From NCBI RefSeq assembly GCF_024700885.2, contig NZ_CP117016.1: DNA of 64,000 nucleotides. One strand, written 5' to 3'. The translations under genes were made by a program, and so were the position numbers. Positions 29,778 through 29,904 of the stretch are shown one piece after another. The notes beneath the pieces were generated by a model. It had not been told where the DNA came from, did no database searches, and worked only from the letters and a program-made list of their open reading frames with translations. This DNA is from Escherichia coli (lineage in GTDB: Bacteria; Pseudomonadota; Gammaproteobacteria; Enterobacterales; Enterobacteriaceae). Numbering within the stretch: the stretch's first letter is position 1; the number at the start of each line of letters is the position of its first letter.

Positions 29778-29833
29778 GTCAATTTGACTATAGATATTGT
29801 CATATCGACCATTTTATTGATAGTCATTTTGAC
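29778..29833. promoter_or_regulatory. three NorR binding sites (GT-N7-AC) forming the norVW enhancer
   Basis: gtcaatttgac (29778-29788), gtcatatcgac (29799-29809), gtcattttgac (29823-29833). Confidence 0.85.
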
Positions 29834-29888
29834 TACTCATTAATGAGCACAATTTTATTTATAGAGTAAAAACAATCAGATAAAAAAC

Positions 29889-29904
29889 TGGCACGCAATC
29901 TGCA
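29889..29904 (+). promoter_or_regulatory. sigma-54 promoter (-24/-12) of norVW
   Basis: tggcacgcaatctgca fits TGGCAC-N5-TTGCA, about 45 bp upstream of the norV start. Confidence 0.8.

Follow-up and report, generated by a model that had tools for sequence, protein, structure and literature searches.

The 186-bp gap of 32% GC that separates the divergent norR (minus strand) and norVW (plus strand) genes on this E. coli chromosome is almost certainly the norR-norVW divergent control region of E. coli, working as described in the literature. It carries three NorR enhancer sites followed by a sigma-54 promoter, and it lies in a 64,000-nucleotide stretch of DNA (hereafter the window, meaning the whole stretch that was analysed) whose overall GC content is 50%. 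The norR-norVW region is among the best characterised sigma-54 enhancer systems. Because the control region found here is the K-12 norVp/NorR UAS itself, it is already known, and the value of the analysis is that of a confirmation: a regulatory element was recognised from raw sequence, to the base. The uneven 21+24 spacing of the sites, their 44-45-bp span, the two classes of site-to-promoter distance and the norR-less Photobacterium loci described below are modest added detail.

The sequence-only reading of this DNA had named the region as the norR-norV control region, and the flanking genes bear this out, as NCBIfam equivalogs identify the adjoining ORFs as NorR, NorV and NorW, with scores far above the cut-offs. 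The norR ORF matched NF003451 over its full length with 824 bits (cut-off, 476), the norV ORF matched NF003954 with 1047 bits (cut-off, 711) and the norW ORF matched NF003437 with 680 bits (cut-off, 392). NorR has the GAFTGA motif at residues 262-267 and the Walker A motif at 215, and differs from the K-12 protein at 7 amino acids; NorV differs from its K-12 counterpart at 2 amino acids, and the norW start overlaps the norV stop. Many E. coli chromosomes have annotated norR/norV DNA that matched the 301 bases around the site with 100% identity, and the norR-norV region was found in 5425 of 5426 complete E. coli genomes. The coordinates of the genes and of the elements between them are collected in Table 1.

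Table 1 Genes and control elements of the norR-norVW locus, in window positions.
Feature	Position	Strand	Description
norR	28251-29765	-	NO-sensing sigma-54 enhancer-binding protein with GAF, AAA+ and HTH domains; 504 aa, intact
NorR site 3, GTCAATTTGAC	29778-29788		Promoter-distal; norR start codon 13 bp away; centre at -132 from the predicted start
NorR site 2, GTCATATCGAC	29799-29809		Centre at -111 from the predicted start
NorR site 1, GTCATTTTGAC	29823-29833		Promoter-proximal; centre at -87 from the predicted start
Candidate IHF-binding/bending region, AAAAACAATCAGATAAAAAA	29868-29887	+	Putative; conserved block in the 41-species ungapped profile
norVp 17-mer, CTGGCACGCAATCTGCA	29888-29904	+	-24 TGGCAC (GG at 29890-29891) and -12 CTGCA (GC at 29902-29903)
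norVp consensus match, TGGCACGCAATCTGCA	29889-29904	+	TGGCAC, spacer GCAAT, CTGCA; one mismatch (C for T) to TGGCAC-N5-TTGCW
Predicted norVW transcription start	29915	+	19 bp after the motif centre; 37-nt leader to the ATG at 29952; prediction only
Shine-Dalgarno GAGG	29943-29946	+	5 nt before the norV ATG; a reading of the sequence
norV	29952-31391	+	Flavorubredoxin NO reductase; 479 aa, intact
norW	31388-32521	+	NADH:flavorubredoxin reductase; 377 aa, full length

Exact string searches placed the three NorR sites upstream of the promoter, and all of them are inverted repeats of the form GTC-N5-GAC with the core GT-N7-AC. The earlier reading had listed three GT-N7-AC sites and a -24/-12 element, and all four were found where it had put them, to the base. 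It had also described the sites as evenly phased, but this did not hold: the centre-to-centre spacings are 21 and 24 bp, that is, uneven. The bare GT-N7-AC core is uninformative alone, with 224 sites in the window (one every ~286 bp). When the core was extended to GTCA-N4-GAC, we found 14 distinct positions in the 64-kb window versus a shuffle mean of 4.6, and counting on both strands gave 21 matches versus 5.5 expected. Three GTCA-N4-GAC motifs inside 60 bp were seen in none of 1000 dinucleotide-preserving shuffles, the shuffle maximum being 2, which was reached in 17 of the 1000.

The same sites have been dissected experimentally in K-12. Tucker et al. 2010 (PMC2831303) mutated each site from GT-N7-AC to GG-N7-CC with mutagenic primers, whose wild-type versions are GATTGATAGTCATTTTGACTACTCATTA for Site 1, AGATATTGTCATATCGACCATTTGAT for Site 2 and CTTTGCCTCACTGTCAATTTGACTATAGAT for Site 3, and the wild-type 11-bp sites that these primers imply are exactly sites 1, 2 and 3 of the window; the 21-bp site 1 oligonucleotide of that work is GATAGTCATTTTGACTACTCA. 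Each of the three sites was needed for activation of norV-lacZ in vivo, for stimulation of the NorR ATPase and, in vitro, for open complexes with sigma-54 holoenzyme and IHF, and the enhancer DNA promoted assembly of the NorR hexamer. In genomic SELEX with NorR, the sole major peak was the norR/norV spacer (Shimada 2021).

Two further palindromes near the promoter were considered and set aside. A fourth one, GTCAACGTGAC (GTCA-N3-TGAC; 29989-29999), lies within norV codons 13-16; the full motif was present in 18 of 121 norV genes and its critical third-codon T in 36 of the 121. Because it is so rarely kept, we regard it as a by-product of the conserved peptide G-Q-R-D and not as a NorR site. 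The other, GTTAGCAAGAC (29905-29915), is an extra GT-N7-AC created by the G allele at 29905, and was taken as a chance match since such cores occur every ~286 bp and this copy is without the GTC/GAC extension.

The norVp motif has GG at -24 and GC at -12, ten bases apart, and faces norV in the correct orientation, 48 bp ahead of its ATG. A search of the window for TGGCAC-N5-TTGCW with one mismatch showed no enrichment by itself (5 matches; 3.3 expected). Because this loose consensus search was not significant alone, we used instead a weight matrix from independent sites, namely 85 intragenic sigma-54 motifs found by ChIP-seq (Bonocora et al. 2015, Table 2), none of which is the norV site. The RpoN weight-matrix scan, which the sequence-only reading had named as a way to check its claim, gave norVp 16.3 bits, against a training median of 14.2, and placed it third among the 127,968 window positions; only the hypA and hycA promoters, which act as positive controls, scored higher in the window.

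Independent experiments point to the same promoter. In Bonocora et al. 2015, the norV sigma-54 ChIP-seq motif (OS25) is the identical 17-mer, with the peak 4 bp from the motif centre, a PSSM score of 12.27, a FAT value of 11 and the EcoCyc status "confirmed" (experimentally). The arrangement that the earlier reading had taken for the known norVW enhancer is therefore the one present here, as the three sites are those of Tucker et al. 2010 and the 17-mer is the norV motif of Bonocora et al. 2015. The RpoN holoenzyme likewise gave a genomic SELEX peak in the norR/norV spacer, and Salmonella norV shows a 16-fold sigma-54-dependent induction. Table 1 of Bonocora et al. 2015 puts the predicted norV start 19 bp beyond the motif centre, at a distance of 37 bp upstream of the gene; applying the 19-bp offset to the motif centre at 29896 predicts a norVW start at 29915. 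The refuting condition that the earlier reading had set, disagreement with the mapped norV start, was approached indirectly, through this prediction. Later papers on PnorV state no coordinate for the start. The CATC at 29915-29918 is a conserved block in the 41-locus ungapped profile described below. On the opposite side, a simple scan of the minus strand for a norR promoter gave no sigma-70-like match; TATAGT at 29787-29792 on that strand is a possible -10 element but comes without a convincing -35.

Between the NorR sites and the start site, IHF was reported to bind (Tucker et al. 2010, PMC2831303). Among 108 species loci, 75 have an IHF WATCARNNNNTTR core with at most one mismatch 17-18 bp before the sigma-54 17-mer, versus 17 of 108 that have one anywhere in a control region. 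The best match to WATCARNNNNTTR in E. coli is AATCAGATAAAAA at 29874-29886, which is weak, with 2 mismatches, and the IHF consensus is much better in most other norV loci; a Citrobacter or Enterobacter fragment, for instance, carries a perfect WATCAANNNNTTR core, unlike E. coli. Because E. coli offers only such two-mismatch matches, we placed the putative IHF site by orthology, at about 29868-29887.

To compare the region across species without circularity, we searched with an anchor in coding sequence only, a degenerate pattern encoding nothing but a NorV peptide (14 letters). The search of 100,044 species genomes gave 120 loci, which span Enterobacterales, Aeromonas, Moritella, Shewanella, Ferrimonas, Pseudomonas/Stutzerimonas, Paraburkholderia and others, and the arrangement was counted in the 117 of them whose upstream DNA reached 250 bp or more. 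A sigma-54 motif stood at the same offset from the coding anchor in 111 of the 117 loci. Among these 111 promoter-bearing loci, 106 had at least three GT-N7-AC in the expected 100 bp, and exactly three GTC-N5-GAC were present in 87. Of these 87 three-site loci, 62 had a spacing of 21+24 bp and 19 a spacing of 19-20+25 bp; site 3 was 45 bp from site 1 in 71 loci and 44 bp in another 13, so that 84 loci had a span of 44-45 bp. From site 1 to the 17-mer the distance was 63-66 bp in 68 loci and 51-53 bp in 19, two discrete classes that differ by about one helical turn; the shorter class comprises the Pseudomonas, Pectobacterium, Serratia and Aeromonas types. When 41 loci sharing one register were profiled without gaps, A at position 4 and T at position 8 of the sites proved to be kept, as was the promoter, while the spacers varied; the GTC, GAC and TGGC columns of this profile carry no weight because they were fixed by the selection of loci.

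A divergent NorR homologue (58-99% identity) was found upstream in 104 of the 120 loci. Five Photobacterium norV genes (L022, L025, L042, L100 and L115) encode the same N-terminal peptide and have no sigma-54 motif, NorR boxes or norR upstream; as the sites and promoter are missing together with norR, these loci serve as a natural negative control, and Photobacterium norV is presumably under a different regulator. Four other loci (L028, L055, L089 and L090) carry the promoter and NorR-type boxes, but the 1.8-2.2 kb of DNA covered upstream contains no NorR homologue; in these loci norR may lie elsewhere. The conserved spacing, the two distance classes and the joint loss in Photobacterium fit the published picture of a DNA-scaffolded NorR hexamer facing the promoter. 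A variation was also seen in the promoter itself: in 35 of 108 norV promoters the -12 element is TTGAT instead of (C/T)TGCA, and most of these 35 belong to the Enterobacter/Lelliottia/Kluyvera type. The GC of the sigma-54 -12 element is usually near-invariant, and it is absent from these TTGAT promoters.

Could the palindromes and the -24/-12-like motif be chance matches without a regulatory role? The intergenic DNA is indeed AT-rich relative to the window (32% versus 50% GC), the bare GT-N7-AC core is frequent (224 sites) and the loose sigma-54 consensus is not enriched (5 versus 3.3 expected). However, a three-site cluster never arose in the 1000 shuffles, the promoter ranked third of 127,968 positions, the sites, their spacing and the promoter offset are kept in about 90-110 of 117 species while the spacers vary, and mutagenesis (Tucker 2010) and ChIP-seq (Bonocora 2015) have been published on these exact sequences, which makes coincidence vanishingly improbable. 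It is hardly more credible that sigma-54 binds the motif inertly and that norVW is transcribed from a sigma-70 promoter. Most sigma-54 sites lack activity under laboratory conditions according to Bonocora et al. 2015, and a plus-strand scan gave one sigma-70-like match, at 29797-29824, which is no more than shuffles give. Against this, the motif is oriented correctly 48 bp before the norV ATG and is an experimentally confirmed promoter in EcoCyc. In Salmonella the 16-fold induction of norV depends on sigma-54, NorR and the sigma-54 holoenzyme together produce open complexes in vitro (Tucker 2010), and 111 of 117 species loci have kept the promoter.

A somewhat stronger case, though still a very unlikely one, can be made for the sites being only an operator for negative autoregulation of norR, with norV driven in some other way. 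Site 3 is just 13 bp from the norR ATG, the K-12 annotation calls NorR a "dual regulator", and Shimada 2021 states that NorR regulates both norR and norVW. Against this reading, every site is needed for norV-lacZ activation and for open complexes at norV (Tucker 2010, PMC2831303), and the distance between sites and promoter is fixed and helically phased across genera. Autorepression of norR would therefore be an added role and not an alternative to activation of norVW by NorR and sigma-54.

The activation of norVW by NorR would then proceed as follows. The presence, identity, non-randomness and conservation of the elements and the intactness of the genes come from the present analysis, and the binding of NorR, the need for three sites, IHF, promoter occupancy and NO sensing are taken from the papers. 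Three NorR dimers would occupy the GT(C)-N-(G)AC inverted repeats centred at about -132, -111 and -87, where the DNA would act as a scaffold for a NorR hexamer that is poised but inactive, and RNA polymerase with sigma-54 would wait in a closed complex on the -24/-12 element. An IHF site in the AT-rich spacer may bend the DNA and thereby join enhancer and promoter. Binding of NO to the non-haem iron of the NorR GAF domain would lift the repression of the AAA+ domain; ATP hydrolysis would remodel sigma-54 and open the promoter, and norVW mRNA is predicted to start near 29915. The products would be flavorubredoxin and its reductase for anaerobic NO reduction. With the sites placed 13-68 bp upstream of the norR start codon, NorR bound there probably represses norR as well, by promoter occlusion.

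The region shares its gene order, three sites, 17-mer, spacings and leader with K-12 norR-norVW (Tucker et al. 2004, 2010). Salmonella norV, Pseudomonas hmp/fhp and Ralstonia eutropha norA/norB likewise have three GT-N7-AC boxes, a sigma-54 promoter and a divergent norR (Tucker 2010), and in our locus set the same layout is found upstream of norV in Salmonella, Citrobacter, Enterobacter, Pseudomonas, Aeromonas and other genera. Other clades differ from E. coli in having a spacing of 19-20 + 25 bp and a site 1-to-promoter distance that is 11-13 bp shorter. Like norVp, NtrC-glnAp2 and FhlA-hyc/hyp consist of an upstream enhancer and a -24/-12 promoter and form ATP-driven open complexes. Such sigma-54 enhancer systems usually involve IHF or intrinsic bending. 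According to Tucker 2010, NorR differs from NtrC in that it needs all three sites and uses the DNA itself as a ligand for hexamer assembly, and its activity is controlled after assembly, whereas that of NtrC is controlled through oligomerisation.

Compared with K-12 MG1655, 197 of 201 aligned bases are identical, and the four substitutions (window/K-12: 29815 T/G, 29846 A/G, 29850 C/T and 29905 G/A) all fall outside the three NorR sites and the norVp 17-mer. Of the four, 29905 alone touches a functional element, and it is the one unusual feature of the region: this is the -10 position of norVp, directly after the -12 TGCA, with G here and A in K-12. Of 40 other species in the same register, 38 also have A at the equivalent position. 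Among 5426 complete E. coli genomes, the exact 55-mer bearing the G occurs in 31 and that of K-12 in 5378. The NorR protein encoded here has M268 where K-12 has I268 (norR codon 268; 28962-28964, minus strand), directly after the GAFTGA loop that contacts sigma-54, besides six other substitutions relative to K-12. The exact 55-mer around the I268M codon was found in 30 genomes, and its top-ranked matches are the same strains as those for 29905 G, so that the G allele appears to travel with NorR I268M. We consider it possible, though unlikely, that in this small E. coli lineage (~30 of 5426 genomes) the two changes alter basal or NO-induced norVW expression; if they do, the paired change of promoter and activator would be a natural tuning variant of the NO switch.

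Other sigma-54-like motifs were present in the window. One of them, CTGGCATCGTTAATGCC, lies in the sense direction in norW (31916-31932, plus strand) and has the fourth best weight-matrix score in the window, 14.8; it was absent among the table entries of Bonocora et al. 2015 that were compared. Another, TTGGCTCGCCTTTTGCC, is antisense in norV (31262-31278, minus strand) with a score of 12.8, and this site corresponds to a low-stringency sigma-54 ChIP-seq peak in a supplementary table of Bonocora et al. 2015. Three are known sigma-54 promoters, those of hydN (35557-35573, minus strand), hycA (47885-47901, minus strand) and hypA (48013-48029, plus strand), whose motifs are identical to OS26-OS28 of the same study. 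The spacer between hycA and hypA also contains repeats of the FhlA-enhancer type, tgtcgacgtgtcatttcgacatcatcgaca, at 47940-47990.
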